Shown here piece by piece: positions 24,463 through 63,960 of a DNA stretch of 64,000 nt. The notes under the pieces were generated by a model. The model was given only the letters and a program-made list of their open reading frames with translations, was not told where the DNA came from and searched no databases. Location of the stretch: IMG/VR virus record IMGVR_UViG_3300028706_000553; one strand, 5' to 3'. This stretch comes from a virus. Within the stretch, counting starts at the first letter, position 1. Every line of letters begins with the position of its first letter. The position numbers and the translations under genes were made by a program.

Positions 24463-25099
24463 TCATGTTGAGTTAGATTTTGAAGAATTAGAAACAACTA
24501 ATATAAACGGCCAAAGGGTATATCAAACACCTGATGGTAACTTTCCTTCTATTACAACAGTCTTGGGCCGTAAAAAAGCGCAATTCTTTAAAGAATGGAG
24601 GCAAAGAATTGGTGAAGAAGAAGCAAATAAAATAACTACACAAGCAACTCGTCGAGGCACGAGCATGCATACGGTAGTGGAAAAATATATTGCTAACGAT
24701 ACTGATTACTTTGGAAAAAGTTTACCTAATGTTCGTTCTATGTTTAATACTATCAAACCCTTTATAGACTCCCATCTTAATAATATTGCTGGTATTGAAA
24801 TACCTCTCTGGTCCAAACAATTAGGAATTGCCGGTCGCTGTGATTGTGTTGGTGACTGGAAGGGGGAGAAAGCAATATTGGATTGGAAAACTTCTGGTAA
24901 AATAAAAAAGAAAGCATGGGTTGAAGATTATTTTTTACAAGCAACAGCGTATTCTATAATGTTTGAAGAAAGAACAGGAATACCTATAAATAGTATTGTA
25001 ATAGTTATGGCAGTTGAGAATGAGGAGCCACAAGTTTTCGAAGAAAAGACTCCGGATTATTGGAAACTCTTGGAAACGACATTGAAGGAATGGAAGTGA
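24455..25099 (+). CDS. PD-(D/E)xK exonuclease
   Basis: FPSITTVL, RGTSMH, AGRCDC..ILDWKTS, YFLQATAY. Confidence 0.85.
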   Translation: MFNHVELDFEELETTNINGQRVYQTPDGNFPSITTVLGRKKAQFFKEWRQRIGEEEANKITTQATRRGTSMHTVVEKYIANDTDYFGKSLPNVRSMFNTIKPFIDSHLNNIAGIEIPLWSKQLGIAGRCDCVGDWKGEKAILDWKTSGKIKKKAWVEDYFLQATAYSIMFEERTGIPINSIVIVMAVENEEPQVFEEKTPDYWKLLETTLKEWK

Positions 25100-25860
25100 A
25101 AAACCAAGTCCTGATAACGGGCGTTAAAGGATTCATTGGTCATCATTTATATGACTCATTAATGGACGAAGGCTACAATGTTAAAGGTATAGACGACTGT
25201 TCCGGGTTAGGCTGGGAAGACAGGGAAGTCCCTCATTCTCATTGCGATATTACTAAAGATCCCTTACCATTTTCAAATGCAGAATATGTTATTCATCTAG
25301 CTGCAAAAGCTGGTGTTCGTAAAAGTTGGCAAGAAAAATATTTAAAAGATTATTGTGATACGAATATAAAAGGTACAGCACGTATCTTTAATCATTATAA
25401 AAATTCTAAAATATTATATGCATCAAGTTCTTCCGTTAAAGATATGAAAAGCCCTTATGCAATGACAAAAGCTGCCGGTGAAGCCATGGCTCCTAATAAT
25501 GCTATAGGAATGAGATTCTTTACAGTATGGGGTGAGCGCTCACGTCCTGATATGTTTTATAGACAACTCCAACAAAAAGAAATAGGATATCTAACAACAC
25601 ATACTAGAGATTGGTGTCATGTAGATGATGTTTGTAATGCTATTAAATTATTAATGGAAAATTTTAAAGTTTGGAAAAAGAAACTACCAGTTTATGAGAT
25701 TGGGTATGGAAGCCCAATGTCTGTATATGATTTTGCAAAAGCACAAGGACCAGAAGAATTTGATATTGATGCATTACCGTTTAAAAATGTAACCGGTGAG
25801 TCAGAAGAAACTTGTGCTGATTCTGCTCCATTAAAAGCACTTGGCTGGAATGTTATGTAG
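25096..25860 (+). CDS. NAD-dependent epimerase/dehydratase (extended SDR)
   Basis: VLITGVKGFIG, HLAAKAG, YASSSS, YAMTK (YxxxK), RFFTVWG; GTG start at GTGA overlap (alternative ATG 25090). Confidence 0.85.
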   Translation: MKNQVLITGVKGFIGHHLYDSLMDEGYNVKGIDDCSGLGWEDREVPHSHCDITKDPLPFSNAEYVIHLAAKAGVRKSWQEKYLKDYCDTNIKGTARIFNHYKNSKILYASSSSVKDMKSPYAMTKAAGEAMAPNNAIGMRFFTVWGERSRPDMFYRQLQQKEIGYLTTHTRDWCHVDDVCNAIKLLMENFKVWKKKLPVYEIGYGSPMSVYDFAKAQGPEEFDIDALPFKNVTGESEETCADSAPLKALGWNVM

Positions 25861-26998
25861 TTACCCTTACAAGCAAGTTGCCTTAAAAGATTGGGACGGC
25901 GATAAATTAAAGTGGTCCCATCCTTGCTGTAATATGTCTCGCCCGGAATGGGAAGATCCAATGGGAATGCATGACATAGATAAATTAACCCCCCCTGAAA
26001 TATTTGAATCAGAACAATTTAAGTTGTTGCGAGATGATTTTGATAATAATCGCAAGAATGATTTTTGTAAAACTTGTTGGAATATGGAAGAGAGGAATAT
26101 TGAACCTTTTTATATTCATAATGATGATATAATTCCTAAAGGACAATTAGATTCAATTGATTTTACCTTATCTAATAAATGTAATTTAGCTTGTAGAATG
26201 TGTGATCCACAAACAAGTCATAGGTTAATGGTAGATTGGAAGTTTTTCAAATCCCAAGGGTTAATTAAAGATATTGAAAATATAACAGCTGGTAAATTTA
26301 GAGAAGAATTAAATATACCAAATGTAAAAAATTCGATTCAATATAAATGGCTTTTAAATAATCCAGTAAAGGAATTAAGATTTAGTGGTGGCGAACCATT
26401 TTTTGATTCATTAATAATAGATTTATTGGATAAATATATTAAAGAAGGTTGGGCAAAAGATACCATCTTAGCGTATCATACTAATGGTACCCTATTTAAT
26501 GATGAATTAATTGGCAAGTTAAATCAATTCAAAAAACAGTTTCCAAAAATTAGTATAGATTCAATAGAAGAAGGATATGACTATATACGTCATCCTTCCA
26601 ATTTTGATGATTTAGATAAAACCGTTCGTTTATTTTTAAATAATTCTACTAATTTGGGCAGAATTAATATTGCTGTTGTTATTTCTGCTTTAAATATCTT
26701 AGACCTTCATAATCATTGGTCATGGTGTTGTACCTTACCTAAAAAAGTTTTTGTTTCATATTGTGAAGTATATCCTGATAATAGGGGCATCAGCCCTAAG
26801 AATTTGAGCAGAGCTTTATTAAATGAGTTGCCTTACATAGATTCTAGAAAACATCAGCAAATAATTCAATCTTATAAAATACGAAACGTTGAAAGGAAAG
26901 AATCGGTTAAAAAAGAAATAGAATTATTCGATATGTCTAGATCCCAAAGTTATAAAAATTATTTACATCCTCATTTAGTATCATGGTTAGATTCGTAG
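25850..26998 (+). CDS. Radical SAM protein with N-terminal twitch-like domain (rSAM 1)
   Basis: CNLACRMC, FSGGEPF; N-terminal C..P..PCC..CKTC. Confidence 0.9.
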   Translation: MLCSYPYKQVALKDWDGDKLKWSHPCCNMSRPEWEDPMGMHDIDKLTPPEIFESEQFKLLRDDFDNNRKNDFCKTCWNMEERNIEPFYIHNDDIIPKGQLDSIDFTLSNKCNLACRMCDPQTSHRLMVDWKFFKSQGLIKDIENITAGKFREELNIPNVKNSIQYKWLLNNPVKELRFSGGEPFFDSLIIDLLDKYIKEGWAKDTILAYHTNGTLFNDELIGKLNQFKKQFPKISIDSIEEGYDYIRHPSNFDDLDKTVRLFLNNSTNLGRINIAVVISALNILDLHNHWSWCCTLPKKVFVSYCEVYPDNRGISPKNLSRALLNELPYIDSRKHQQIIQSYKIRNVERKESVKKEIELFDMSRSQSYKNYLHPHLVSWLDS

Positions 26999-28242: not shown

Positions 28243-28409
28243 TAATAAACAAGATAGTCAACTATTGGAAAGAAAACTTTGGGAAAGAAGATTTAAAATT
28301 CCCCTGCACTTATAAACCAGGCAAAAATAGCAAAGAATTTGAAGATTCTATAGATGCGATGTTACGAGAAAAGTATCCTGAAAATTGGAAGAAGCACGGC
28401 GGAAAGTAA
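28239..28409 (+). CDS. Small hypothetical protein (56 aa)
   Basis: ATGA overlap with the upstream stop and TAATG overlap with the downstream start. Confidence 0.55.
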   Translation: MIINKIVNYWKENFGKEDLKFPCTYKPGKNSKEFEDSIDAMLREKYPENWKKHGGK

Positions 28410-28918
28410 TGAAAAAATCCATGGAAGAATTTGCTATTACATTACAGACATGGACATGTAGTATGCATAATAATCCTGATAGAGAAGTTTGCCCTGCACC
28501 TAATGGAGAAACATTAGTAGACTATATGAGTGAATATGATTTAACTTCAAGAGTTGATTTTCCGCTCTCTATACCTGAACAAGTAGCGCTGTTTATGTTA
28601 AATGAACATGTTCATTGGAGAGATTTAGTTAGCTATGATATGAATTTGGTTTTAGATGACATGGAAAAAGAATCATTAGATTATACTTATAGATTAAATC
28701 GTACACTTTTAATATCAAAAGGAATATCTAATTCAAATGAACCATGGGCACAACAAAGTAATGATCTTCCTCTGCACCGAATGAAACATATGCTACATCC
28801 GAATATTGGTTTTTTTGATAATATGTCCCGATATCAATTTTTAGATATAGAAACACGAAATGGACATCCTGTATATATTCCATTTAAAGAAACATTATAT
28901 TTGTTTAATCAACTATGA
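28409..28918 (+). CDS. Hypothetical protein
   Basis: ORF translationally coupled on both sides; no recognised motif. Confidence 0.65.
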   Translation: MKKSMEEFAITLQTWTCSMHNNPDREVCPAPNGETLVDYMSEYDLTSRVDFPLSIPEQVALFMLNEHVHWRDLVSYDMNLVLDDMEKESLDYTYRLNRTLLISKGISNSNEPWAQQSNDLPLHRMKHMLHPNIGFFDNMSRYQFLDIETRNGHPVYIPFKETLYLFNQL

Positions 28919-29922
28919 ACATATTAATTTTAGGTGGAGGAAGTGCTGGTTGGTTAGCAGCCGCATATTTATCCCGAACTAATAAAGTTGAAATAAAGCT
29001 TCCTAAAAATTCCAAACCTATAGGTGTTGGAGAAAGTACATTACCTGGACTAGTTAAATTTTTTGATTATTGTGGAATATCTGAAGATGATGTAATTAAT
29101 AAGTGTGACGGTGTAATTAAATATGGTATTAAACATCATGGTTGGCATAAAACTGATTGGGTACACCCGTTTCCCAATAATACTCATGCTTATCATTTAG
29201 ATGCGTTAAAAATGATTATTCTTCTAGAAGAAAAAACGCGCTCCAGATTATGTAAAGTAGATAATCCTGATTTAGTAATAGATTGCACCGGCTTCAATAG
29301 TGATTTTTCTAAAAATAAACAATTTGGTTCTTATAAAACTCTGTCTAATAATATGGCACTCTTCGCGCCCGGTGATTCTAATTGTCAATCTATAACAAAT
29401 ACTTTCGCTATGGATTATGGGTGGATGTGGAATGTAGATTTAAGATCAAGGAGTGGTAATGGGTATGTTTTTAATAATAATTTTATAAGTGTAAATGATG
29501 CCATTGAAGAATTTAAAAATAAAAATGTAGGCAATGTTAAAGCCGAAGACATTCAAGCTATTCCCTTTAATAATAGGTATTGTTTAACCCCGTGGTTGGG
29601 GAATACCGTGTCTGTGGGATTAAGTTGTGGATTTGCAGAACCTCTTGAAGCTACAGGACTTTTTCTAATAACATGGGCGATAGAAACTATTGAAAAATTA
29701 AAATATAAAAAAAATAAAGAGGAAATATTTAATCGTTCATATGTTAGATTGTGTCAGCATGTATATGATTTTTTGGAATTATTTTACACTTCTTCTAAAA
29801 ATGATCATACTGAATATTGGAGATCTTTAAAAAAATATCATACATTGAATAAACCAAAATATAATATTAATTTTTTTAGGGAAAACTATTCTTATAAGTT
29901 TTTAAATGATGCCAGCTTATGA
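28915..29922 (+). CDS. Flavin-dependent (tryptophan halogenase family) protein 2, shortened
   Basis: LGGGSAGW, IGVGEST, IKYGIKH, DCTGF, GWMWNV, FAEPLEATG; 335 aa. Confidence 0.8.
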   Translation: MNILILGGGSAGWLAAAYLSRTNKVEIKLPKNSKPIGVGESTLPGLVKFFDYCGISEDDVINKCDGVIKYGIKHHGWHKTDWVHPFPNNTHAYHLDALKMIILLEEKTRSRLCKVDNPDLVIDCTGFNSDFSKNKQFGSYKTLSNNMALFAPGDSNCQSITNTFAMDYGWMWNVDLRSRSGNGYVFNNNFISVNDAIEEFKNKNVGNVKAEDIQAIPFNNRYCLTPWLGNTVSVGLSCGFAEPLEATGLFLITWAIETIEKLKYKKNKEEIFNRSYVRLCQHVYDFLELFYTSSKNDHTEYWRSLKKYHTLNKPKYNINFFRENYSYKFLNDASL

Positions 29923-31571
29923 AGAACGTTTACTTATTACAATTAACATCTCCTTTATCTGACTCTTCCGTTGGAGTTGAAATGTCGAGTAATAAATCGG
30001 TATTTTTACCATATTCTGTCGGTCTTCTTTGGTCTTATTGTTTACAAAATAAAATAATATCCGATAATTTTATATTAAAGGATTTAGTGTTTAATATAGA
30101 TGATTTAGATCATTATATTGATAACATAGAACAACCAGATATAGTTGCTACTAGTAATTATATGTGGAATTCTAATAAACACCTTTATATATTAAAAAAA
30201 TTAAAAAAAAAGTATCCGGATTGTTTGATTATTTGTGGAGGACCACATGTTCCTAATTCTAATGATGATAAATGGTATGATTCGCATGACTATGTGGATA
30301 TTGGTGCTGTGGGAGAGGGAGAAAAAATCTTTGAACAAATTTTATTAGAATATTTTAATAAAAAAGATTTTTCTGAGATACCAGGAATTATTTTTAGAAA
30401 AAATAATGAAGTTTTTAAAACGAAACAAGCTATTAGAATTAAAGATATTAATACAATCCCTAGTCCATATTTGTCGGGGCTTTTTAATAATCTTATATTA
30501 AAAAATCCTTCAGTTAATTTTCACGCTACCGTTGAGATGGATAGAGGTTGTCCATTTAAATGTACCTTTTGTGATTGGGGTAGTTTAACTCAACAAAAGA
30601 TGATAAAATTTGATGAATGTAGACTATTTAAAGAATTTGAATGGATTAGTCGCAATAAAATAAATTATCTTTGGTTCACAAATAGTAATTTGGGTATATT
30701 TAAAGAAAGAGATTATAATATAATAGATAAGGCAGTAGGGTATCATGAAACTACAGGTTATCCTAAAAAAATAGCACACTCAGGTTATGCAAAAACACCG
30801 GCAAATAAAAATTCTTCATTACAAATACAACAACGATTATTAGAGGGCGTTAAGAATAATAATACTGTTCCTAGAGTAGCTTTACAATCTACCAATCCAG
30901 AAGTTTTATCTAATATTAAAAGAAAAAATATGAGCATTGTTAATGCGGATAAGATGAATTCTAAAGATATAGAGATTGAATTAATATATCCCCTACCAGG
31001 TACTACGTATGATGGATGGGTTAAAGAGCTATCCGGAATGATGCCAATTAAAAAATTAAAAATAAACGTATATCCTTGTTTAATTTTACCGAATGCGGAG
31101 CTTAATGATAAATCTTATAAGAAACGTTTTAAAATGAAAACAAAAACCATTCCCTTTAATGTTGACATGGAAGAATGTGAAATTATTACTTCTATGGAGT
31201 CTATGTCATATGAAGATGTTGTTAAAGGCTGGATGTTTGTATGGATTGTTAAGAATTTTTGGTTTGAACCAATATTAAGATACATATATTATGAATATTT
31301 TAAAGCCGATGTTAAAATAAAAGATTTTTTTGTTAAATTTCAAGATTTTCTAGAAAATAATCCAACATCAACCACAGGCATATTATATAATCGATTAAAA
31401 AATAATATTCATAATACATATGATGATTATGACCAAGTAGTTGATCATAATTATTGCATTGGGTATTTTCGAGAACATGTTAATTTAGTTTTAAAGGACT
31501 TTGAAAAATTCATATACAAATATTTTAATAGGTCTATAGATAATTTAGGTGTGGGTTATGCAATGCAGTAA
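29919..31571 (+). CDS. Cobalamin-binding radical SAM protein (class B methyltransferase-like) (rSAM 2)
   Basis: LPYSVGLL, SNYMWN, IICGGPHV, VGEGE (B12-binding domain); RGCPFKCTFCDW. Confidence 0.9.
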   Translation: MKNVYLLQLTSPLSDSSVGVEMSSNKSVFLPYSVGLLWSYCLQNKIISDNFILKDLVFNIDDLDHYIDNIEQPDIVATSNYMWNSNKHLYILKKLKKKYPDCLIICGGPHVPNSNDDKWYDSHDYVDIGAVGEGEKIFEQILLEYFNKKDFSEIPGIIFRKNNEVFKTKQAIRIKDINTIPSPYLSGLFNNLILKNPSVNFHATVEMDRGCPFKCTFCDWGSLTQQKMIKFDECRLFKEFEWISRNKINYLWFTNSNLGIFKERDYNIIDKAVGYHETTGYPKKIAHSGYAKTPANKNSSLQIQQRLLEGVKNNNTVPRVALQSTNPEVLSNIKRKNMSIVNADKMNSKDIEIELIYPLPGTTYDGWVKELSGMMPIKKLKINVYPCLILPNAELNDKSYKKRFKMKTKTIPFNVDMEECEIITSMESMSYEDVVKGWMFVWIVKNFWFEPILRYIYYEYFKADVKIKDFFVKFQDFLENNPTSTTGILYNRLKNNIHNTYDDYDQVVDHNYCIGYFREHVNLVLKDFEKFIYKYFNRSIDNLGVGYAMQ

Positions 31572-32043
31572 TAGATCATTAAATGACGATGATTTATTGA
31601 TAATATTAGAATTTTTAGTTGAATGCTCATATTTAAGATATAAAAATAATGTGAGTTTAAAAAGTATCAAATATAATGAAGCCAAGTGGGTGGGAACCTT
31701 TATAGATTCATCTTTAATTTCTATGAGTGGTGTTAAATGGGAAGAAGAGTTAAAAGGATATCGTTTATTATTCAGAGGTGTTACTCTTCCTGGACATGTA
31801 AAAAAAGTATCGAGAGATATTATACAAAGTTCATATCAATGGAGCCATATAAACATCCAAAAGGAAATTACAGGTGGAGTCGGACCATATTATTTAACAA
31901 ATAATGTAGATTCTAAAAATGGTGTTAAGAGTTATAAATTTTCAAACATTATGAAAAAGTTATCCCAAAAAGGTATCGTAGATTTAGTGGATGTCAAAAT
32001 GTTTAATAATGTGAAACAAAATATTTGGAAATATAATTTATGA
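31558..32043 (+). CDS. Hypothetical protein, possibly GNAT-like
   Basis: ISMSGV..YRLLFRGVTLPG pattern; weak. Confidence 0.45.
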   Translation: MQCSNRSLNDDDLLIILEFLVECSYLRYKNNVSLKSIKYNEAKWVGTFIDSSLISMSGVKWEEELKGYRLLFRGVTLPGHVKKVSRDIIQSSYQWSHINIQKEITGGVGPYYLTNNVDSKNGVKSYKFSNIMKKLSQKGIVDLVDVKMFNNVKQNIWKYNL

Positions 32044-32660
32044 AAATATCTTTATATACTAGTGGTTCAACAGGAAAACAAAAACTAGTTACACATGCTG
32101 AAAAGGATTTTTATAAAGCCGGTCATTGGTTAGTTGAAAAATGGGGAATAGGATACGATGATGTTATTATAAACCCTTTCCCAACATGGACTATTGCATG
32201 CTGGGCGTTTTGTATAATACCTGCAAAAATTGCCCATTGTAATTTAGTAAATATTAAATTTGAACCTTTGAAATTCTGGGATGTTGTAGAAGAAGTTAAA
32301 CCTACAATTCTTACATTAGCAATTGGAACATGGAGGACCCTTGTTAAAAGAAAAAAACCTAATCTTGAATTTGTTAGGAATTTTTCTACAGGCTCTGCGC
32401 CAGTTACTGATGAAGATATATCACTAATGAAATCAACAGGCGCACAAAATGTTTGGAACATATATGGTTCTACAGAATGTATACCACCTGTAATGATATC
32501 AAATAATAATATTTTTGATTTTCAAGAATCTCCATATTATTTGGAATACAAAGATAATTTATTTGTTGATGGTGTAAGCACAGGTGATACATTTGATCTT
32601 AGTACAGGAAAATTTGAGAGTAGAATAAAACAGATAAAGGCGGATACATGGAAGTCTTAA
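32040..32660 (+). CDS. Truncated AMP-binding (ANL adenylating) enzyme
   Basis: YTSGSTGKQK (A3 motif), TGSAP, YGSTE (A5 motif), TGD (A7 motif); only 206 aa. Confidence 0.75.
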   Translation: MKISLYTSGSTGKQKLVTHAEKDFYKAGHWLVEKWGIGYDDVIINPFPTWTIACWAFCIIPAKIAHCNLVNIKFEPLKFWDVVEEVKPTILTLAIGTWRTLVKRKKPNLEFVRNFSTGSAPVTDEDISLMKSTGAQNVWNIYGSTECIPPVMISNNNIFDFQESPYYLEYKDNLFVDGVSTGDTFDLSTGKFESRIKQIKADTWKS

Positions 32661-40870: not shown

Positions 40871-40878
40871 TATAAATA
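40871..40878 (+). promoter_or_regulatory. T4-type late promoter TATAAATA inside the radical SAM cluster
   Basis: Exact consensus immediately after the stop at 40870, in one of the few real intergenic gaps. Confidence 0.7.
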
Positions 40879-49729: not shown

Positions 49730-49734
49730 ATATT

Positions 49735-55122: not shown

Positions 55123-55280
55123 TGAAAAAGAAAACTGGTAAACGAAAAAGTAAATCATGGCGCAGACGTATTCCACGATGTACTCTATGTACAACATGGC
55201 GCTGGCTGGGCAATGCGAAAGAACGTATACGATTTAGCGACCGAAGAAGAATGAAAAATGTGGAACCGGAAAACGATTGA
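55122..55280 (+). CDS. 52-aa highly basic CxxC peptide (below the ORF-track cutoff)
   Basis: Manual translation MKKKTGKRKSKSWRRRIPRCTLCTTWRWLGNAKERIRFSDRRRMKNVEPEND; TAATG overlap with rSAM 12; fills the gap before 55258. Confidence 0.6.
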   Translation: MKKKTGKRKSKSWRRRIPRCTLCTTWRWLGNAKERIRFSDRRRMKNVEPEND

Positions 55281-56184
55281 GTGGATAGATGTTGAGTTAA
55301 CATCATTTTGTAATATAGCTTGCCCTGGCTGTCTTAGGCAAGAAAAGAGAGAGCAAGTTGAATCTATTTTAAATAAAAATATTATTGATTTTGAAGATCT
55401 TAAAAGATGGATTACCTCTAAAGAATTTCCTAATCTTAAATTATTAAATTTTTGTGGTTCCGTAGATGAGCCCACCCTTCATCCAGATATATTAGAAATT
55501 GTAAGACATTTTAAATCTTTTACAGATGTTAATATTGCATCTAATGGGTCTACCAAAACAAAAGAATTTTGGAAGGAGTTGGGTGAACTAGGGGCCTCAG
55601 TATTTTTTGGATTAGATGGAACAGATCAGGAATCATTATTAAAATATCGAATCGGTTCTAATTTTAAAAAAGTGCAAGAAAATTGGAGAGCCTTTATAGG
55701 AGCAGGAGGCAACGCAACTTGGCAGTTTATTGTGTTTGACCATAACGAGCACTTATTTGATGATGCAGAAAGAATGTCGGAAGAGGAAGGGTTTAAAAGA
55801 TTCAGAGCAATATTTTCTCATAGAGGAGGAAGTGGTGAAGTAAAAAAAGAAGTAGAAGAGGAAAAGGAGATTCGATGCAAATATGGAAATCAAAAAAGAT
55901 TATTTATAAATCATACCGGAGCAGTGCTGCCTTGTTGTTATTTAAATTCCGAAGCTTTAGAAATAGCTGCTACTAGAAAAGGAAAAACTAAATTTGGAAA
56001 AATTTGGAATGACTCCGGCGGAATTTTAGCAAATAATTTAAAATATAATACTATATCTGAAGTTATAGATGGTGAAATGTTTGACCTTATACAGAAATCT
56101 TGGGAGTGGCCGGATCCGGTAGAGAAATGTTGGAATACTTGTAAAGTTAAAAAAAGAGATATTTTTATAGATAAGGAGATATAA
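55258..56184 (+). CDS. Radical SAM protein with C-terminal SPASM/twitch domain (rSAM 13)
   Basis: CNIACPGC, CGSVDEP, SNG, WQFIVFDHN, LPCC..CWNTC. Confidence 0.9.
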   Translation: MWNRKTIEWIDVELTSFCNIACPGCLRQEKREQVESILNKNIIDFEDLKRWITSKEFPNLKLLNFCGSVDEPTLHPDILEIVRHFKSFTDVNIASNGSTKTKEFWKELGELGASVFFGLDGTDQESLLKYRIGSNFKKVQENWRAFIGAGGNATWQFIVFDHNEHLFDDAERMSEEEGFKRFRAIFSHRGGSGEVKKEVEEEKEIRCKYGNQKRLFINHTGAVLPCCYLNSEALEIAATRKGKTKFGKIWNDSGGILANNLKYNTISEVIDGEMFDLIQKSWEWPDPVEKCWNTCKVKKRDIFIDKEI

Positions 56185-56185
56185 T

Positions 56186-57589
56186 ATGAAGCAATGTTTT
56201 TATGCAATGGGTGGAATCAATTATAAAAACGGAACTGTTTCATGTTGTCCAAGGCAGGCAGATCAATTAGTTTTTCAGAATGATACTTTTTTACCTTCAG
56301 AAATTTTCAATCATGAAAATTTTAAAGAGTTGAGAAGAAAACTTCATAATGATGAATGGCCTAATGGATGCGATACATGTGAATCAATGGAGGAAGTTGG
56401 TGTCGCTTCTATGAGAAATGATTTCACTTTAGAAAAGAATGGAAGCTTTTATAAGGATCAAGGAAAACCACCTGAAGGCGCTAATATATATACTGTTCAA
56501 TTTTATGAAGAATTTCATAAAGAACATTGTCCAGAAGAACATTTTTTAATAAAGTGTTATAATCCAGAAACTCATGAGACGAGGAATGAAGGGCTGAGAC
56601 ACATAGAACTTAGGTTTAGTAATGCTTGCAATTTTGCTTGTAAACATTGTTCTAAAGTATTTTCTTCTGGATGGAAAGGTAAGCTTCAAAATTTTATACC
56701 AGATGAAGAATCAAAGTTATACGATTTAAAACAATTATTGGGGACTGAGCATAGACATGATAAGGATGACGATTATGAAATGGCTTTAACTGTTGAACAA
56801 TCCTTACAAATAGTTGATGATTTAAATGCTAATTTTCCTTATCTAGAACATATTAATTTTGCAGGAGGAGAACTTTTATATCAAAAACAATTCCTTCCGG
56901 TATTAAAAAAATTAGGAGATCATCCTAATGCTTCTAATATACATCTTAGTTTTCATTCTAATTTTAATTCTGATTTTGATGTTGTTAAATTGTCTGAATT
57001 ATTATTACCATTTAGTACTTCCACTATTACAATATCGATTGATGCAGGCCGAACGTTTTATTCTTATTTTAGAAGTGGTGGGACATGGGAACAATTAGAA
57101 AAAAATATTAAAAAGTTTAGAGAATATAATGATTATACCTGGTTGGATATTACATGTACAACTTCAATATATCAAATGCTGGACATTTATGATGTATTTG
57201 AATCTTTTATAAGTTTAGAAGCATCTGTTAATATATCTATAGTGCAATCTCCAAAATATTTAGATCCTTCATTGATATTATTAGATTTTGAAAAAGAAAC
57301 AATGAAAGATATAGAAAAAACAGAGGAGCTAATTAAGTCATTTTTCGATAAACCTATAGAAAGGGTTTCCGAAAAAACTGGACACATGTATTGGGTAAAG
57401 CATGAACAAACTCTGGAAAAACTGCATCGCATAGTTAAATATATTAAAAGTTTTAAACCCAAATATCATGATTATAATAGATTTTTAATTTATAGAAAAA
57501 AATCCGATATGATATGGAATGAAAATTTTAATGACTATTTTCAAAACTATCAAATAGATGAACATAATGAATTGATTCGCGTAAAATGA
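56186..57589 (+). CDS. Radical SAM protein with N-terminal twitch-like domain (rSAM 14)
   Basis: QCFY..SCC..CDTC; CNFACKHC; FAGGELL. Confidence 0.9.
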   Translation: MKQCFYAMGGINYKNGTVSCCPRQADQLVFQNDTFLPSEIFNHENFKELRRKLHNDEWPNGCDTCESMEEVGVASMRNDFTLEKNGSFYKDQGKPPEGANIYTVQFYEEFHKEHCPEEHFLIKCYNPETHETRNEGLRHIELRFSNACNFACKHCSKVFSSGWKGKLQNFIPDEESKLYDLKQLLGTEHRHDKDDDYEMALTVEQSLQIVDDLNANFPYLEHINFAGGELLYQKQFLPVLKKLGDHPNASNIHLSFHSNFNSDFDVVKLSELLLPFSTSTITISIDAGRTFYSYFRSGGTWEQLEKNIKKFREYNDYTWLDITCTTSIYQMLDIYDVFESFISLEASVNISIVQSPKYLDPSLILLDFEKETMKDIEKTEELIKSFFDKPIERVSEKTGHMYWVKHEQTLEKLHRIVKYIKSFKPKYHDYNRFLIYRKKSDMIWNENFNDYFQNYQIDEHNELIRVK

Positions 57590-58608
57590 AACATTTTTGC
57601 ATGGCGCCATTTACTCATATACAAATGAACCCGGCCGGAGAAATAAATCCATGTTGTATTTTTGATAAAAGAATTTATCCAAGATATGATAGTTTAGAAA
57701 TGGCTTTTAATGGTCCAGAAAATTCGGAACTTAGAAGTAAGATGTTAAACGATGAATGGATTAAGGGTTGTGAAAAATGTTATAGGGATGATGAAATAGG
57801 TAAACCAAGTTATCGTAAAAATTTCAATAACAAATATGATAAAAGTTATATTCAAAATCCAAAAATAAAGGAACTAGAATTTTCTGCTTCCAATTTATGT
57901 AATTTTAAATGCATAGGTTGTAATTCTAAATTTAGTTCGGCGATTGGTGGAAAATTATATAAAAATTTATTACCGGATTTAGATTTAAGTGAATTAGAAG
58001 ATTTAAAGATTCTTGGTGGTGAGCCATTTATGGATCCACTGTATTTAGAATTGTTTAACACTCTTAAAATTGAAAATATTAATTTAATGATTGTTACAAA
58101 TAATTCTATTTTTCCAAATGAAAAATGGAGAGAGTATCTTACCAGATTTAAAAGTTTGAATTATAATGTTAGTATTGACGGAATTGGTGAGGTAGCGGAG
58201 TTTGTTAGATATGGAACCAAGTGGTCTCGATTTGAAAAGAATTTTGATAAACAATTAAAACATTTTTTCGTAATACCTCATTACGTCTTTCATACCCTTA
58301 ATAGCACGGACTTAACTGATACGATTAAGTGGATAGAATCAAAAGGGATAACTAATAATACTATATCATATGATTTTTTAGATGGACCGGAATGGTTGAA
58401 TGCATCTTATTTGCCTTCTAATGTAAAAGATATCATAATAAATAATAATGACAATTTTTTACAAAAAGAAATAATAAACTTCTTAAAGTCTAATGAATTT
58501 GATAAAAGTTATTGTATTAAGTTAATTAAGTGGATGAATGAAAGAGATGACCTTCCAGATAAATGTGAAGAGATATATTACGAGGTCTCCAAATGCTTAA
58601 AGTCTTAA
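57586..58608 (+). CDS. Radical SAM protein with N-terminal twitch-like domain (rSAM 15)
   Basis: FCMAPF..PCC..CEKC; CNFKCIGC; LGGEPF. Confidence 0.92.
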   Translation: MKHFCMAPFTHIQMNPAGEINPCCIFDKRIYPRYDSLEMAFNGPENSELRSKMLNDEWIKGCEKCYRDDEIGKPSYRKNFNNKYDKSYIQNPKIKELEFSASNLCNFKCIGCNSKFSSAIGGKLYKNLLPDLDLSELEDLKILGGEPFMDPLYLELFNTLKIENINLMIVTNNSIFPNEKWREYLTRFKSLNYNVSIDGIGEVAEFVRYGTKWSRFEKNFDKQLKHFFVIPHYVFHTLNSTDLTDTIKWIESKGITNNTISYDFLDGPEWLNASYLPSNVKDIIINNNDNFLQKEIINFLKSNEFDKSYCIKLIKWMNERDDLPDKCEEIYYEVSKCLKS

Positions 58609-59507
58609 CCAAAGATGGTTTAAAATATTGTAATGATCAGACTATTAAAACAAGAACAAATTTTAAAGGTTGGCATTGCAGACAAACAAACTATATTATT
58701 GATGCCGGCTGGTGGGAAGTGGGTACTTCAGTTTGCAGAACACCTTATCCCGTTTCAATAGATGATTTTACTGAACCTAAAGAAATAATATGTCCTAATG
58801 AAAATTGTTTCTGTGGTACTGATATAGCTATGCCTAAAGGTAAAACAGAAGATCATATGTTGATGATTCCTGTTTACACCGATGTAAAAGGAAAATTAAA
58901 ACCGGATGATGAGGTTCTTGCTGTTTGGGGTGATGATGGTGTTTCCGTAGATTTTTATACAGATCGCAAATGTAATTTTAGATGTAGTTATTGTGATCCA
59001 CGTAGTCACAATTATAAAGGTGATTTAACGTCATTAGAACGGATGCAAGAAGCTTGGAATAAAGTTAATCCTTTAAATGTTAAAAAAATAATTATCTCAG
59101 GTGGGGAACCAACCCTTATTCCTCGTTATATAGATTTTGTAAAATGGTTAAAAGAAAAAGAACCTGAAGCAATTATTTGGACTTTAACTAATGGAACTAA
59201 ACAGGTATCTTACTTAAGAGAATTAAATAAATTATCATTAATAAACTTTTCAATACATCCAGAGTTTATTAATCATAGATATATTAATAAGTTGGAACGA
59301 TTTTGTGAAGAAGTAAATTTACCTTGCAAGATTAAAATTATGTATCTACCAAAATATGAAGAATTAATAACAGAGATATATTCAATGTTTAAAGGAAGAT
59401 TTGAAAAGGTATATGTAATGACAGTACCTTTATGGGATATGAATAATAACATGAATTTAATGAAATATACACCTGAACAACTTGATTTTATCCATGCGAC
59501 TCAGTGA
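58593..59507 (+). CDS. Radical SAM protein with the GWxC-type Fe-S domain at the N-terminus (rSAM 16)
   Basis: N-terminal NFKGWHC..VC..ICPNENCFCGTD; core CNFRCSYC, SGGEPT, LTNG. Confidence 0.88.
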   Translation: MLKVLTKDGLKYCNDQTIKTRTNFKGWHCRQTNYIIDAGWWEVGTSVCRTPYPVSIDDFTEPKEIICPNENCFCGTDIAMPKGKTEDHMLMIPVYTDVKGKLKPDDEVLAVWGDDGVSVDFYTDRKCNFRCSYCDPRSHNYKGDLTSLERMQEAWNKVNPLNVKKIIISGGEPTLIPRYIDFVKWLKEKEPEAIIWTLTNGTKQVSYLRELNKLSLINFSIHPEFINHRYINKLERFCEEVNLPCKIKIMYLPKYEELITEIYSMFKGRFEKVYVMTVPLWDMNNNMNLMKYTPEQLDFIHATQ

Positions 59508-60519
59508 AGAAGATTTTACTAAGATACCTTGGCATGATATTGTAGCTCTCGGCACTAAGACAATGCTATATCGAGATACATTTACCATATCTTGGTTGTT
59601 AGGTAGATTTTGTAACTATAAATGTTCTTATTGTTGGCCATACGCCCGGGCAGATAAAAAAGATCACAGACCAACGGAACTATGTCTTAAAACTATTGAT
59701 GAAATAAAACGTCAAGCGAGAGATCAGGGATTTAATTCTTTTAACTGGTCTTTGTCTGGAGGTGAACCAACCTTTCATCCAGGTTACTTAGATATACTTC
59801 AGCACTTAGCTGATGACGAGCATGCTAAAAGACAAAGAATACATATGACTTCAAACTGTTCTCGTAAAATAAAATGGTTTGAAACATATATTAAATATGC
59901 ACAAAAATTTGACAAAGCATCAATTACAGCATCTGCTCATTTTGAACATTTAAATACCCAAGACAAGATAGCTGACTTTGCAGATAAGTTAGTTTTTCTT
60001 CAAGATAATGGAATTAGAATAACTATTAATATGGTGATGATCCCAGAGAGATTTTGGGCACTGACAGATCATGTTTTATATTTTAAAGAACGTGGTATTC
60101 ACACTACATTAAAACCACAATCAAATCCAACAGCAACAAAAGTTGTAGAAGGATATACTCAGGGACAATTAGATATTTTACATAATGATTCTAGACCATC
60201 TGATCGAGAGATAGATTTAATAGATTCAAAAGGAAATATATATGAATTGGACCAAGCTGAAAGATTTAACGCGTTTAATTTTAATGAATTCAAAGGCTGG
60301 GACTGCACGTCGGGTTTTCGTAGTATTATTATACGCGAGCCTTGTGGGAGCATTAAGCGGTCATATTCTTGCAGTGATCTACCTTTAGGAAATATAGAAA
60401 CTGGATTCAAATTATTTGATAAACCTATGCCCTGCATAACTGATAATTGTGTAAGTTCAGCAGATAGTAAAATTCCTAAACGAAAGCCAGAAAGTAATTA
60501 TCCATTATGGAAAAATTAA
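59494..60519 (+). CDS. Radical SAM protein with C-terminal GWxC-type Fe-S domain (rSAM 17)
   Basis: CNYKCSYC, SGGEPT; FKGWDC..SC..PCITDNCVSSAD. Confidence 0.92.
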   Translation: MRLSEEDFTKIPWHDIVALGTKTMLYRDTFTISWLLGRFCNYKCSYCWPYARADKKDHRPTELCLKTIDEIKRQARDQGFNSFNWSLSGGEPTFHPGYLDILQHLADDEHAKRQRIHMTSNCSRKIKWFETYIKYAQKFDKASITASAHFEHLNTQDKIADFADKLVFLQDNGIRITINMVMIPERFWALTDHVLYFKERGIHTTLKPQSNPTATKVVEGYTQGQLDILHNDSRPSDREIDLIDSKGNIYELDQAERFNAFNFNEFKGWDCTSGFRSIIIREPCGSIKRSYSCSDLPLGNIETGFKLFDKPMPCITDNCVSSADSKIPKRKPESNYPLWKN

Positions 60520-61619
60520 AACACTTCTGTGCATTACCCTTTACTCAATTTACTGTCTCATCATTTAATGAGTATCAGTTATGTTGTGATAATACGGGTG
60601 AATCAGGAATGTATAGTGATCAACATTCTATCTTAGAATATTTTAACTCTGATTATATTAATAAACAAAGATTATCATTTCTTAAAAATAAAAGATTAGA
60701 TATATGTCAGTCCTGTTGGAAAAGAGAAGATAAAGGTTTAAATTCAAGAAGATTAGAAAGTTTAAAAGGAAATTATAGAGAGCAAGTAAGAAGATATAAA
60801 CAAGGATTACCTTTAATTCCAAATCATCCTGTTTTTAAAATTAAGTTTGGAAATTTATGTAATCTTAGATGTATAATGTGTGGTCCGCAATCATCATCTG
60901 CATGGGCCCAGCATAAAGAAAAACATAGTGAAGGTACATGGCCGATTTATGAAAATACATTCAATGAAGGAACATATGAAGATTTAAAACAAATATTACC
61001 TAATGTAAGTCGTATTATTATATCAGGAGGTGAGCCTTTAATGAATGATAGATATTATGATTTTCTTGAATGGCTTATTGGATATAAGTTCGCAAGTAAA
61101 TTAAAAATAACAACTCTTACTAATGCTACGAAAATACCAGAACATTTGTTTCAATATAAAAAAGCTTTTAAACGATTATCTTTTAATATATCAGTTGATG
61201 GTATAGGAAAGAAAGATGAGTATATTAGAACAGGGCAGGTTTGGGAAAAGAAAAAAGAGAATATTTTCAAACTACAACAAAATTTTATGATTGGATTTGA
61301 AGTAACAGTGCAGGCACTTAATATTGGTTACTTAGATAATATTCAAGGTTATTTAAAAAACAATTTTGGAAGAATGTCTCCATTAACAAACATCTTAGTA
61401 ACTCCAAAATATTTTGATTCCACCAGCTTACCACAAGATATAAAACAACTCTACTTAAATAAAAATACAAAATATATTCCTGAGCGGATTACAAATCTAT
61501 TAAGAACACCTACAAAAGGTAAATCTTTTCAAAAAGGTTTAAGGTTTCTTAAACTGTGTGATAAAAGAAATAATACAAATTTCTTAGAAGAGTGGCCCGA
61601 ATTTAGACCGTATGTATAA
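60507..61619 (+). CDS. Radical SAM protein with N-terminal twitch-like domain (rSAM 18)
   Basis: FCALPF..LCC..CQSC; CNLRCIMC; SGGEPL. Confidence 0.92.
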   Translation: MEKLKHFCALPFTQFTVSSFNEYQLCCDNTGESGMYSDQHSILEYFNSDYINKQRLSFLKNKRLDICQSCWKREDKGLNSRRLESLKGNYREQVRRYKQGLPLIPNHPVFKIKFGNLCNLRCIMCGPQSSSAWAQHKEKHSEGTWPIYENTFNEGTYEDLKQILPNVSRIIISGGEPLMNDRYYDFLEWLIGYKFASKLKITTLTNATKIPEHLFQYKKAFKRLSFNISVDGIGKKDEYIRTGQVWEKKKENIFKLQQNFMIGFEVTVQALNIGYLDNIQGYLKNNFGRMSPLTNILVTPKYFDSTSLPQDIKQLYLNKNTKYIPERITNLLRTPTKGKSFQKGLRFLKLCDKRNNTNFLEEWPEFRPYV

Positions 61620-62652
61620 TCCCGATCAAATAAAACATATTCATTTAGAACCCACCCAAAGATGTCAAGCCGCATGTCCAATGTGCGATAGGACAAATAA
61701 TCCTCGTATAAAAAATGCTGAATTGACCTTAGATAATTTCATGCATATGGTGGATATTGATTTTGTGAAGCAATTAAATTCATTATTAATGTGTGGTAAT
61801 CACGGTGATCCTATTATCTCATTACATGCTCTAGATATTTTAAGATACCTTAGAGTCAACAACCCAGATATACACCTGCAAGTTACTACAAATGGTGGTG
61901 CCAGAGACGAAGACTTTTGGAGAGAATTAGCTTTCATTTTAGGTAGTAGAGGTAAAGTACAATTTAGTGTTGATGGCCTGGAAGATACAAATCATTTATA
62001 TAGAGTAAATGTTAATTGGAAAAAAATTGAAGAAGCAATGGATGTATTTACTCAAGCAGGTGGAAAAGGTGTTTGGGTTTATTTAATATTTGAACATAAT
62101 GAACATCAAGTTGAAGAAGCAGAACAAATGGCCAAGTTATTTGGATTAGACTTTATAAGAAAAAAGACTGGAAGGTGGGTACAGAGCTATAAAGGTAAGA
62201 AGATTGATAAAAAGATAACCAACAAAGGGAATGAGATTAAACCAGCTACAAAACCAGAGCATCAGAATCAAAGCGTAAATAAATATGATAGATTGGTTAA
62301 GACTCATGGTTCCTTTCAAGAGTATTTAGATCAAACATCCATCAAATGCAAATCCCTTATAACTAATGAAATATTTATCAGTGCTGAAGGTCTTGTAACT
62401 CCTTGCTGTTGGACTCATGGACGATTTTATAAAGCATATCAAGAGATTGGTGAAAATCAGATTTGGTCTTTCGTAGATGACGTGAAAAATATAAATGCTC
62501 TTCATACTCCGTTACGAGAAATCATTAAAGGAAACTTTTTCGCACAGCTGGAAAAGAGCTGGAATCTCCCTTCATGTTCTGATGGGAAATCTGTTGTATG
62601 TGCTGAGAAATGCGGTTCAGGGTTTGATGCTTTTAGAGATCAGTGGAAATGA
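61612..62652 (+). CDS. Radical SAM protein with C-terminal SPASM/twitch domain (rSAM 19)
   Basis: CQAACPMC, CGNHGDP, TTNGG, FSVDG, TPCC..CAEKC. Confidence 0.92.
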   Translation: MYNPDQIKHIHLEPTQRCQAACPMCDRTNNPRIKNAELTLDNFMHMVDIDFVKQLNSLLMCGNHGDPIISLHALDILRYLRVNNPDIHLQVTTNGGARDEDFWRELAFILGSRGKVQFSVDGLEDTNHLYRVNVNWKKIEEAMDVFTQAGGKGVWVYLIFEHNEHQVEEAEQMAKLFGLDFIRKKTGRWVQSYKGKKIDKKITNKGNEIKPATKPEHQNQSVNKYDRLVKTHGSFQEYLDQTSIKCKSLITNEIFISAEGLVTPCCWTHGRFYKAYQEIGENQIWSFVDDVKNINALHTPLREIIKGNFFAQLEKSWNLPSCSDGKSVVCAEKCGSGFDAFRDQWK

Positions 62653-63392
62653 CAAATTTTTATTGTTTGAAATGGGGAACAAAATATAATCGCTTTTATG
62701 TTAATAGACTGTTTAATTCTTTAAAGGAGCATTATGACGATCCTTTTAGTTTTACTTGTCTTACTGATAATACTGTGGGTCTTGATAAAGATATTATCGT
62801 AGACCCAATACCAACTGATTTTAGTGAGTTTCCAAGAACACAAATATTTACATCTGAGAAGATGTGTTATTTTAATAGTTATAAACACATCTCGGGACCG
62901 AAGGCTTGGTTTGACTTAGATATATTAATACAAAATAATATAACGGAACTTATTAATAAAAAGAAAAATAAGGTAACATATATTTGGAACTATTGGAGAA
63001 ACGAAGAAGCACATAAAACTAATTATGGTTGGATGACTACTCCAATTAATTCTTCTTTTGTTGCTTGGCAAGATGATTTAGGTTTTGATATGTATGAAAG
63101 ATTAGTTAAAAATAAAGAGAAGGCATTTTTTACTTATCCATCATATGACAAATATCTATTCTATCAAGAACATAGAAAAGGTAATTTAAATTATTGGGAA
63201 CCAGGAATAGTATATAATTATAATATAGGAGTTAAATATCCTGATGATTTAAACCCGACAAAATATAGATCTGATTATAAAGTCTGTTTATTTAATACAT
63301 CACACAAAGCATGGGCGAAACCTAATGAAACACATATAGAGTTACATCAGGCAGAAGGCTGGGCATATGACAAATGGATTAGTTATGAATGA
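62649..63392 (+). CDS. Putative GT-A glycosyltransferase
   Basis: CLKWGTKY, FTCLTD, WFDLDILI (DxD), INSS. Confidence 0.65.
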   Translation: MTNFYCLKWGTKYNRFYVNRLFNSLKEHYDDPFSFTCLTDNTVGLDKDIIVDPIPTDFSEFPRTQIFTSEKMCYFNSYKHISGPKAWFDLDILIQNNITELINKKKNKVTYIWNYWRNEEAHKTNYGWMTTPINSSFVAWQDDLGFDMYERLVKNKEKAFFTYPSYDKYLFYQEHRKGNLNYWEPGIVYNYNIGVKYPDDLNPTKYRSDYKVCLFNTSHKAWAKPNETHIELHQAEGWAYDKWISYE

Positions 63393-63960
63393 GTTTGATT
63401 CGTTTGCTTCTGATATCTTAAAAAATTCGGATTCAAATGCATATGATATTTTGTGGTATACTGTTCCAGAAAATAGACGACATAATGTAGGTGCGGCTAA
63501 TAACCGATATAATAAAACCTTAAATGATAAGATCCATTCTTTAATTACTCAATATTTTGACGAAGACGATTTAAACATGGTATGTTCTTGGTATATGAAT
63601 TATCATGTTGACAAAATAGAAAAATTAGGTTATAATATAACTTATTATGATTCAGATCCTTATGTGTGCGAAGATTGTGATCTTATAAGTGACAATATAC
63701 ATAACGTAGATGTTATATTTGATAGAGTGCGATTTAAAGGTCCTATCATACATAAATTTTGTGAAGATACTTATCCTATTGGTAAAGTTCATAAGGGAAA
63801 ATATATATTAGCAGGTAGTAATAAAAAAAGATTGCATATATGTAACCCTATTGAATCCTCTCAGCAATTAATAGAACAGAATGAAATCAAGTCCGTTATC
63901 TATGAAGAAGAATACGAATTTCAAAAAGTTAAATATTCAATAGTAGTAGGATGTTCATAA
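63385..63960 (+). CDS. Hypothetical protein (possibly a degenerate methyltransferase fold)
   Basis: Coupled ORF at the cluster end; no clear motif. Confidence 0.55.
   Translation: MNEFDSFASDILKNSDSNAYDILWYTVPENRRHNVGAANNRYNKTLNDKIHSLITQYFDEDDLNMVCSWYMNYHVDKIEKLGYNITYYDSDPYVCEDCDLISDNIHNVDVIFDRVRFKGPIIHKFCEDTYPIGKVHKGKYILAGSNKKRLHICNPIESSQQLIEQNEIKSVIYEEEYEFQKVKYSIVVGCS

Follow-up and report, generated by a model that had tools for sequence, protein, structure and literature searches.

A modular island of radical SAM genes in an uncultured marine T4-like phage

What does a phage do with 19 radical S-adenosylmethionine (SAM) enzymes encoded in a single stretch of its genome? The question is raised by IMG/VR record IMGVR_UViG_3300028706_000553, a stretch of viral DNA of 64,000 nucleotides (the whole of which is called the window here), in which these genes form an island at 25060–63960 on the plus strand, from an epimerase/dehydratase gene at its start to the gene for a 197-residue protein at the right edge of the window. 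A first-pass annotation from the sequence had described this island as a single phage-encoded supercluster of some 39 kb, with no characterized pathway of like density known to it. Profile searches, structure prediction and comparison with related loci bear out the enzymes and their phage setting, and show that the island is a composite of three modules, one of which is common to many viruses and to predatory bacteria. The substrate is tentatively placed among sugars and glycoconjugates. Open reading frames (ORFs) are named below by their start coordinates and are listed in Table 1.

Phage setting and integrity

The locus belongs to a marine myophage, T4-like and uncultured, in which it forms an island of auxiliary genes inserted between rnh on one side and gp59/gp32 on the other. 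To its left lie genes for ThyX, a class II ribonucleotide reductase, a T4-type RNase H (rnh), a DUF6267 protein and a cell-wall hydrolase; the closest GenBank relatives of the upstream genes are found in Methylophilales phage Melnitz and in cyanomyoviruses (43–48% identity), and the backbone of the phage is only ~45–55% identical to cultured relatives. The same island recurs, at protein identities of 70–99%, in nine or more independently assembled IMG/VR contigs that come from different metagenomes. A relative of 177,419 bp (G001; 100% complete according to CheckV, with 17 Radical_SAM matches) supplies the right-hand flank, in which the island is followed by three unassigned genes, SNase, FolE, a further unassigned gene and QueC, and then by gp59 and gp32. 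The interval from rnh to gp59 and gp32 that the island occupies measures ~5 kb in Synechococcus phage S-CREM1. In G001 the run of radical SAM genes stops at the orthologue of 61612, so that the cluster, for which a continuation past the window had been considered possible, does not extend far beyond it.

The window is AT-rich throughout (27–38% GC) with a positive and constant GC skew, and nearly all of its long ORFs are on the plus strand. Within the island the genes are co-oriented and tightly coupled, as first described, with overlaps at 34 of 44 junctions and gaps of more than 20 nt at only three. All ORFs are intact, and the ratio of nonsynonymous to synonymous substitution rates (dN/dS; pairwise, against three relatives) is between 0.07 and 0.46 for every island gene, none being near 1; the island is maintained by purifying selection. 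Chimerism and relaxed selection, which the first-pass annotation had raised as possible objections, are therefore excluded by the T4-like flanks in independent assemblies, by the complete relative and by these ratios. Recent tandem duplication was also considered and ruled out, the repeats being only short motif-coding stretches of at most 77% identity. No tRNAs, riboswitches or other Rfam RNAs were found in the window. A cyanobacterial host was rejected, as psbA is absent from G001 and two further relatives (G002 and G003). The motif TATAAATA occurs at 24985 and at 40871, yet it is depleted overall and unconserved at both places in relatives, and late-promoter control was set aside.

Radical SAM families and the three modules

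Between 25841 and 62652 the CxxxCxxC motif is found in 19 ORFs, all of them co-oriented, which is exactly the number originally reported. Pfam Radical_SAM (PF04055) matches 17 of them at E < 1e-3, 12 above the gathering score. The remaining two, 29919 and 34260, have B12-binding matches (PF02310) above the cut-off and CxxxCxxC at residue ~210, as in class B (cobalamin) radical SAM enzymes, and align over ~430 and ~340 residues, respectively, to the B12 radical SAM model of KedN5 (NF033712). Their scores of 203 and 226 bits, against a cut-off of 700 bits, mark them as related to that family only; the second-best family of both is a C-methyltransferase of peptides that are made on ribosomes and modified after translation (RiPPs).

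The dominant family is N_Twi_rSAM (NCBIfam NF033640; cut-off 170 bits), to which seven proteins belong (25841, 41355, 44441, 50735, 56186, 57586 and 60507; 175–408 bits), an eighth similar protein, 39066, scoring 132 bits and thus falling below the cut-off. As is characteristic of this family, the SPASM Pfam matches of these proteins are N-terminal, corresponding to a Cys-rich twitch/SPASM-like domain ahead of the CxxxCxxC core. The up to eight paralogues in this one island share 20–34% identity, and their alignment was too divergent to serve as a query for genome scans. A search of the literature found no published characterization of any member of NF033640. An AlphaFold (AF2) model of 50735 (pLDDT confidence score 82) has a radical SAM core fold, for which Foldseek returned only generic matches, led by SkfB (E 1e-4, TM score ~0.3) and followed by CteB, viperin, anSME and MoaA; PDB sequence searches with 50735, 59482 and 61612 gave nothing useful.

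These enzymes are distributed over three modules that do not form one fixed supercluster. The left module (25.0–45.6 kb) is lineage-specific and combines four N_Twi-type and the two B12 radical SAM enzymes with an epimerase, two halogenase-family proteins, PhyH and TauD oxygenases, an FkbM methyltransferase, an AMP-binding fragment and reductases. The second module is a cassette of ~5 kb (45.6–50.7 kb; genes 45601–49735) encoding a protein with no family match, an aminotransferase, two short radical SAM–SPASM proteins, a split radical SAM enzyme (a free SPASM-like ORF and a radical SAM core) and a StrB1-like amidinotransferase. It is missing in G001–G003, where the orthologue of 44441 adjoins that of 50735, and is 99–100% identical in another contig, the neighbouring genes of which are only 70–92% identical; judged by these comparisons, the cassette is mobile. 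The third module, the core array (50.7–63.4 kb), holds ten radical SAM enzymes, a QueC/Cap9-like PP-loop enzyme and a GT8-like transferase.

With a profile for the 50735 type, at least 584 IMG/VR contigs were detected. Gene frequencies were surveyed in 45 array-bearing distant viral loci of at least 15 kb each: 37 have the 61612 type, 28 have the PP-loop gene and 11 have the glycosyltransferase (GT) gene, the other array types being present in 10–23, whereas left-module genes are present in only 1–6, except for the generic N_Twi paralogue 41355 (14 loci). These frequencies indicate a widespread core array and a lineage-specific left-hand 20 kb, and the idea of a single 39-kb pathway gives way to that of a lineage-specific module and a mobile cassette joined to a widely distributed array. 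Nor is the density without parallel, since the viral loci contain a median of eight and a maximum of 14 CxxxCxxC ORFs per ~20 kb.

Among cellular genomes (one per species) the 50735 type is found almost only in Bdellovibrionales/Bacteriovoracaceae, at ~50% identity and including chromosomes of 1.6–3 Mb. A block of ~10 radical SAM genes, with the 50735, 59482 and 61612 types, is kept in 21–39 of 39 Bdellovibrionales loci, one of which is OZ242254.1 1407744–1429114; these arrays lack the PP-loop gene, and their flanks are unconserved, no other gene being conserved across the 39 loci. A GT2 gene lies within or beside the array in two of the five chromosomes with mappable coordinates, and in one chromosome the array is flanked by two GT2 genes, a PMT_2-type GT-C gene and an amine oxidase gene. 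No literature on this conserved block was found.

The phage-type array is also seen in GenBank contigs assigned to metagenome-assembled genomes (MAGs) of Acidimicrobiaceae NP20, Chloroflexota NAT137, Verrucomicrobiales CPC23, Rickettsiales MED657 and Gammaproteobacteria MED685. One GenBank MAG contig (L021) has the gene order of the island, with protein identities of 74–99%. Because the phage gene order is shared, such array-bearing marine contigs probably derive from viruses and reached bacterial MAGs through mis-binning. Searches of GenBank phages found no close homologues of the B12 or N_Twi enzymes; cultured phages have small N_Twi arrays, with four such genes in Vibrio phages K566 and K567 and homologues in Ralstonia phage RsoM2USA. 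In K566 (OZ196521.1, 158319–177284; cultured, 255 kb) the four proteins carry CNLxCRxC at residues 110–148, and their genes lie among unannotated genes, with a gene for a pagP-like lipid A acyltransferase and a NAMPT gene ~5 kb away. A 271-kb ENA contig (L017) packs at least 11 Radical_SAM genes into 21 kb, accompanied by a nitroreductase and a B12 radical SAM enzyme, and in a further array (L168) a ferredoxin gene follows and large collagen-repeat, tail-fibre-like genes precede.

Partner enzymes

The non-radical-SAM enzymes of the first-pass annotation were largely recovered by profile. ORFs 26983 and 28915 are, by their GxGxxG, WxWxI, catalytic Lys region and EPLE Glu, flavin halogenase-family proteins, and both match PF04820. 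Pfam likewise supports the FkbM methyltransferase, the epimerase, the reductases and, as a fragment, the aminotransferase; the adenylating enzyme was confirmed by PF00501, but as an AMP-binding fragment of 206 residues. The putative amidinotransferase 49735 was missed by both Pfam and NCBIfam and was matched to StrB1 (PDB code 1bwd) with an E value of 3e-14. Three of the five iron/2-oxoglutarate (Fe/2OG) oxygenases proposed earlier have profile matches (two PhyH and one TauD), whereas 42886 and 32648 have the motif only and gave no signal when compared with the PhyH alignment using hhalign. Both PhyH-type proteins carry HQD. In the TauD-family protein 37105 the sequence W-H-A-N-E stands at the HxD position, with Asn replacing the carboxylate iron ligand. 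The gene is nevertheless 89–93% conserved (dN/dS 0.10–0.15), and the protein could have a non-canonical or halogenase-like iron site.

The PP-loop protein 52190 is QueC-like in its SGGADS and C-x13-CxxCxxC motifs, which are invariant across 22 homologues, and in its AlphaFold model (pLDDT 89), which is nearest to Cap9 (TM score 0.64 by target) and then to QueC, but its score against Pfam QueC (PF06508) is 18.5 bits, below the cut-off of 22. It retains the SGGxDS, PF(x)nK-like and CE...CxxCxxCx[DE] elements of the QueC/Cap9/QatC group, and differs in that the deazaguanine-binding motifs YxQxHxxE, VPxRN and YPDC (PMC13329287) are absent from its family consensus and in that its conserved neighbour is a radical SAM enzyme rather than QueD/QueE, a CD-NTase or QatAB. 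The glycosyltransferase 62643 is weakly supported, by a PHROG glycosyltransferase match (E 1.3e-4) and by Atlas clusters of nucleotide-diphospho-sugar transferases. The free SPASM-like domain 48642 aligns to the C-terminus of 55258, if weakly (pairwise E 8e-5), and has no Pfam match. The absences noted earlier were reproduced: profile searches of the island proteins found no polyketide synthase (PKS), nonribosomal peptide synthetase (NRPS), exporter, RiPP recognition element (RRE)/PqqD domain or recognizable DNA base-transfer enzyme.

Several smaller features were also recorded. At 31549–33343 the AMP-binding ORF lies between two ORFs without family matches, with overlaps of 4 and 13 nt and all three under purifying selection; the region may encode a naturally split adenylating enzyme, with 31549 possibly its N-terminal piece. 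At 40871–41345, TATAAATA directly 3' of the aldo-keto reductase stop codon is followed by overlapping ORFs of 77 and 73 residues with lipoprotein-like signal peptides (VVGC and MIGC). This stretch is found in only one relative and is absent from the closest (L021); from this pattern it is a tiny variable cassette within the island. A methylthioadenosine/S-adenosylhomocysteine (MTA/SAH) nucleosidase assignment for 42452 was discarded, the E value being only 0.036, as was the idea that a basic ORF of 52 residues at 55122 encodes a precursor peptide; this ORF is unconserved and lies in a gap that is absent in a 98%-identical relative.

Outside the island, ThyX and the class II (B12-dependent) ribonucleotide reductase are encoded at 12910–15692; this reductase and the two B12 radical SAM enzymes together predict a host that contains cobalamin. 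Co-oriented genes for a pyruvyl transferase, a GT1, a cytidylyltransferase-like protein, a GHMP kinase and a SIS (GmhA-like) protein lie at 17330–21132, 4 kb upstream of the island, and look like a module for nucleotide-heptose synthesis and transfer. A 616-residue protein (4881–6731) has CxxxCxxC (CPEGCKNC at residue 92) and no Pfam match.

Table 1. Predicted genes and small features of the island, by module
Module	Feature	Coordinates	Strand	Evidence and remarks
Left	NAD-dependent epimerase/dehydratase	25060–25860	+	PF01370 E 1.8e-24, GDP_Man_Dehyd E 5e-17; dN/dS 0.26
Left	N_Twi_rSAM	25841–26998	+	NF033640 175.4 bits; CNLACRMC at residue 114
Left	Flavin halogenase-family, 419 aa	26983–28242	+	PF04820 E 1e-64; GxGxxG, WxWxI, EPLE present
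Left	177-aa protein, no family match	28385–28918	+	Kept in relatives; dN/dS 0.4
Left	Short halogenase-family, 335 aa	28915–29922	+	PF04820 E 7e-62; motifs retained; relatives 94–97% identical
Left	B12-binding radical SAM, KedN5-like	29919–31571	+	PF02310; NF033712 203 bits; CPFKCTFC
Left	164-aa protein, no family match	31549–32043	+	4-nt overlap with AMP-binding ORF; dN/dS 0.15
Left	AMP-binding (adenylating) fragment, 206 aa	32040–32660	+	PF00501 E 7e-20, profile positions 168–330 of 384
Left	231-aa protein, HxD...H conserved	32648–33343	+	No Pfam, PHROG or PDB match
Left	PhyH-type Fe/2OG oxygenase	33337–34263	+	PF05721 E 1.4e-11; HQD motif
Left	B12-binding radical SAM	34260–36083	+	PF02310; NF033712 226 bits; 39% identity to paralogue 29919 (blastp)
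Left	PhyH-type Fe/2OG oxygenase, 33337 paralogue	36080–37108	+	PF05721 E 7e-12
Left	TauD-family protein, H-A-N replacing HxD	37105–38184	+	PF02668 E 4e-11
Left	FkbM-family methyltransferase	38201–39064	+	PF05050 E 8.5e-8
Left	N_Twi-like radical SAM, below cut-off	39066–40133	+	NF033640 132 bits
Left	Aldo-keto reductase	40130–40870	+	PF00248 E 1.6e-22
Left	TATAAATA motif and two small lipoprotein-like ORFs	40871–41345	+	ORFs 40898–41131, 41124–41345
Left	N_Twi radical SAM	41355–42467	+	NF033640 208.9 bits
Left	161-aa protein	42452–42937	+	MTA/SAH-nucleosidase likeness marginal: PDB 4qez E 0.036
Left	Small protein, HxD...H...RxS	42886–43416	+	Putative 2OG-Fe(II) oxygenase by motif only; no profile match
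Left	Conserved 109-aa protein	43413–43742	+	Unassigned
Left	Nitroreductase-family flavoprotein	43767–44438	+	PF00881 E 3e-9
Left	N_Twi radical SAM	44441–45616	+	NF033640 176.7 bits
Cassette	260-aa protein, first cassette gene	45601–46383	+	No family match; absent in G001–G003
Cassette	Class I/II aminotransferase-like, 270 aa	46370–47182	+	PF00155 E 1.3e-10; SKAFGLAGLRIGY motif
Cassette	Short radical SAM, C-terminal SPASM	47175–47969	+	PF13186 E 4e-9, PF04055 E 3e-5
Cassette	Short radical SAM, C-terminal SPASM	47951–48706	+	PF13186 E 1.5e-12; 37% identity to paralogue 47175
Cassette	Free Cys-rich SPASM-like protein, 119 aa	48642–49001	+	Weak match to 55258 C-terminus; no Pfam match
Cassette	Radical SAM core without accessory domain	49001–49729	+	PF04055 E 7e-5; kin of 55258, 61612, 54118
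Cassette	StrB1-like amidinotransferase, last cassette gene	49735–50751	+	PDB 1bwd E 3e-14; also HsvA, AGAT, SxtG
Core array	N_Twi radical SAM, core-array anchor	50735–52177	+	NF033640 408 bits
Core array	QueC/Cap9-like PP-loop ATP pyrophosphatase	52190–53002	+	SGGADS and Cys motif; in 28/45 viral loci
Core array	Radical SAM	52905–54143	+	PF04055 E 5e-10
Core array	Radical SAM, 61612/55258 group	54118–55122	+	PF04055 E 3e-8
Core array	Radical SAM with SPASM	55258–56184	+	PF04055 E 1e-12, SPASM E 4e-5
Core array	N_Twi radical SAM	56186–57589	+	NF033640 204 bits
Core array	N_Twi radical SAM	57586–58608	+	NF033640 220.5 bits
Core array	Radical SAM, Fer4_12 and N-terminal extension	58593–59507	+	PF04055 E 8e-13, PF13353 E 3e-8
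Core array	Radical SAM	59482–60519	+	PF04055 E 2e-14; Bdellovibrionales orthologues ~52% identical
Core array	N_Twi radical SAM	60507–61619	+	NF033640 280 bits
Core array	Last island radical SAM, SPASM-like C-terminus	61612–62652	+	PF04055 E 9e-11; in 37/45 viral loci
Core array	GT8-like nucleotide-diphospho-sugar transferase (weak)	62643–63392	+	PHROG 1962 E 1.3e-4, Atlas clusters; 11/45 loci
Right edge	197-aa protein, no family match	63367–63960	+	Orthologue in G001

Candidate substrates and significance

We lean towards sugar or glycoconjugate chemistry for the non-radical-SAM enzymes because of the epimerase/dehydratase at the start of the island, the GT8-like gene at its end, the upstream heptose-nucleotide, GT1 and pyruvyl-transferase set and the StrB1-like amidinotransferase. 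The GT2 or GT-C genes at the Bdellovibrionales array in two of five mappable chromosomes and the pagP-like neighbour of the K566 array point the same way. The reading that we tentatively prefer is that radical chemistry tailors a substrate, derived from sugars or a glycoconjugate, whose final place is the host envelope or the virion. During infection, SAM, Fe–S cluster assembly, reductant and cobalamin from the host would feed the island enzymes, which would carry out serial radical C–H functionalizations (dehydrogenation, epimerization, C-methylation and C–C or C–X bond formation) on a nucleotide-sugar, an aminocyclitol-like unit or a glycoconjugate. Tailoring of this substrate would fall to the epimerase/dehydratase, the amino- and amidinotransferases, the reductases, the methyltransferase and the oxygenases, amidation of a carboxylate to the PP-loop enzyme, and installation on a glycan of the host envelope or virion to the GT8-like enzyme together with the upstream heptose, GT1 and pyruvyl-transferase genes. 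The modules may serve one glycoconjugate or several, and gain and loss of the cassette would diversify the product among phages.

Known systems resemble parts of this scheme. Aminoglycoside and aminocyclitol tailoring shares with the cassette two radical SAM–SPASM enzymes of ~250 residues (the size of BtrN-type enzymes), which stand with the aminotransferase and with an amidinotransferase whose nearest match, StrB1, is an inosamine-phosphate amidinotransferase; unlike aminoglycoside clusters, the island has no inositol or 2-deoxy-scyllo-inosose (2-DOI) synthase, kinase or glycosyltransferase set, the identity to StrB1 is low and the likeness to BtrN is one of size. Among the members of the QueC family are N-sugar amidotransferases, WbpG for example (PMC13329287). 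Pelagimyophages, which are likewise marine and T4-like, gain and lose radical-SAM cassettes, as is seen here for the 45.6–50.7 kb cassette; theirs sit in a glycosyltransferase-rich region, the host recognition cluster, between VrlC and gp14 rather than between rnh and gp59/gp32, and are treated in one sentence that gives no content, count or function (Zaragoza-Solas et al., 2020; PMC7029224).

Several observations weigh against a sugar substrate. Set against a surface-polysaccharide locus, the epimerase/dehydratase, the GT8-like gene and the upstream heptose, GT1 and pyruvyl-transferase genes are present; no flippase, polymerase or exporter was found, and a nucleotidyltransferase is also absent inside the island. 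The GT assignment of 62643 is weak, and glycosyltransferase flanks accompany the Bdellovibrionales array in only 0–4 of 39 loci. For the N_Twi model, the closest solved structures are those of peptide maturases, viperin and MoaA, all at low TM scores of ~0.3. Flavin halogenases and KedN5-like B12 radical SAM enzymes are known from aromatic or peptide substrates and not from sugars, and we know of no sugar pathway that uses anywhere near 19 radical SAM enzymes.

The chief rival reading, in which the radical SAM enzymes, B12 methylases, hydroxylases and halogenases modify phage structural proteins (tail fibres or capsid), or an unrecognized ribosomal peptide in the manner of the proteusins and polytheonamide, is possible but doubtful. 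The PP-loop enzyme would then ligate a carboxylate to a protein amine, as does its best structural match, Cap9, a protein–nucleobase ligase (bioRxiv 10.1101/2025.04.06.647259). For the SPASM/twitch enzymes, the closest solved structures and the neighbouring NCBIfam families are peptide or protein maturases (SkfB, CteB, anSME, SuiB, WgkB and PapB), although these are generic core-fold likenesses, and the RiPP C-methyltransferase relationship of the B12 enzymes fits as well. Proteusin/polytheonamide-type tailoring employs B12 radical SAM C-methyltransferases, an Fe/2OG hydroxylase, an N-methyltransferase and the flavin brominase SrpI (PMC10858898), and the left module has its own pairs of B12 radical SAM enzymes and flavin halogenase-family proteins, PhyH/TauD proteins and a methyltransferase. 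However, no NHLP/Nif11 precursor, PoyD-type radical SAM epimerase, leader peptidase or other protease, or transporter was found in the island by profile, nor was an RRE or PqqD domain, and no small ORF is conserved, neither that at 55122 nor the lipoprotein-like pair. In some other phages such arrays lie beside tail-fibre-like genes or in the host recognition cluster (PMC7029224), whereas the island here is in the replication module, away from structural genes.

A diffusible or intracellular small molecule other than a glycan, made during infection, such as a halogenated and methylated aromatic or aminocyclitol-like metabolite or a cofactor, which might suppress competitors or reprogram the host, is unlikely. 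The left module and the cassette do have the mix of a natural-product tailoring cluster (halogenases, KedN5-like enzymes, AMP-binding fragment, FkbM methyltransferase, aldo-keto reductase, nitroreductase, aminotransferase and amidinotransferase), and a similar three-gene set of aminotransferase, radical SAM enzyme and amidinotransferase in cyanophage S-SCSM2R has been termed 'antibiotic synthesis genes' (PMC12801897). The island, however, encodes neither a scaffold builder (PKS, NRPS, or a cyclase for terpenes or sugars) nor an exporter, a lytic phage gains from its product within one short infection cycle only, and a core array made almost purely of radical SAM enzymes suits modification of an existing abundant substrate better than synthesis de novo. 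For the core array, with its N-terminal-twitch enzymes, its two SPASM-type families and, in phages, its QueC/Cap9-like ligase, we also consider, as an equally improbable proposal, an undescribed multi-enzyme radical pathway that remodels an existing macromolecule of the cell under attack, for instance a glycan of the envelope, peptidoglycan or a lipid, is common to phages and predatory bacteria and uses chemistry outside the characterized radical SAM families.

Nucleobase or nucleic-acid chemistry, which would yield a modified nucleotide, of 7-deazapurine type or otherwise, for use in phage DNA, in host tRNA or against defence, seems still harder to credit. The location of the island inside a nucleotide-metabolism and replication module speaks for it, as does the QueC/Cap9-like enzyme, the most conserved non-radical-SAM partner of the array. 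Downstream of the island in G001 (2684–6631; L019) are genes for SNase, FolE, a 290-residue protein (phrog_19058), canonical QueC and a 203-residue protein. FolE and QueC are thus 3–6 kb from the island, with QueD at G001:155956 and no separate QueE-sized radical SAM enzyme seen outside the island; the 290-residue gene offers a weak DpdA lead, through one Atlas embedding cluster in which 17% of members have DpdA. Against this, neither tRNA-guanine transglycosylase (TGT; PF01702) nor DpdA (PF23859) was matched in G001–G003, and of the enzymes of phage 7-deazaguanine DNA modification G001 has FolE, QueC and QueD and no match to the transfer enzyme; thymidine-hypermodification genes were not seen, 52190 lacks the QueC/Cap9 substrate motifs, and the Bdellovibrionales arrays do without the PP-loop gene. 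An artefact, either a chimera with cellular DNA or decaying functionless genes, has next to no probability: the close copies deposited in MAG bins of bacteria (Acidimicrobiaceae NP20 and Chloroflexota NAT137 among them) might suggest a cellular origin, but these contigs share the gene order of the phage, and the island is uniform in base composition and strand bias, in addition to the flanks and selection described above.

We found no published description of an island of this size and composition, of the conserved core array, of its breadth in IMG/VR, of its QueC/Cap9-like partner or of its Bdellovibrionales counterpart. Radical SAM enzymes are costly, each requiring Fe–S clusters and consuming SAM at every turnover, and a lytic marine phage nevertheless retains 19 of them under purifying selection. 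The recurrence of the core array, in at least 584 viral contigs and in predatory bacteria, means that its role in infection must be an important one. A function for N_Twi_rSAM would annotate thousands of metagenomic genes and would probably bring novel radical reactions to light. Should the product prove to be a glycoconjugate of the envelope or the virion, it would matter for host range and for superinfection exclusion among the abundant bacteria of the ocean, and the cultured phages with small arrays (Vibrio phages K566/K567 and Ralstonia phage RsoM2USA) open the question to experiment.

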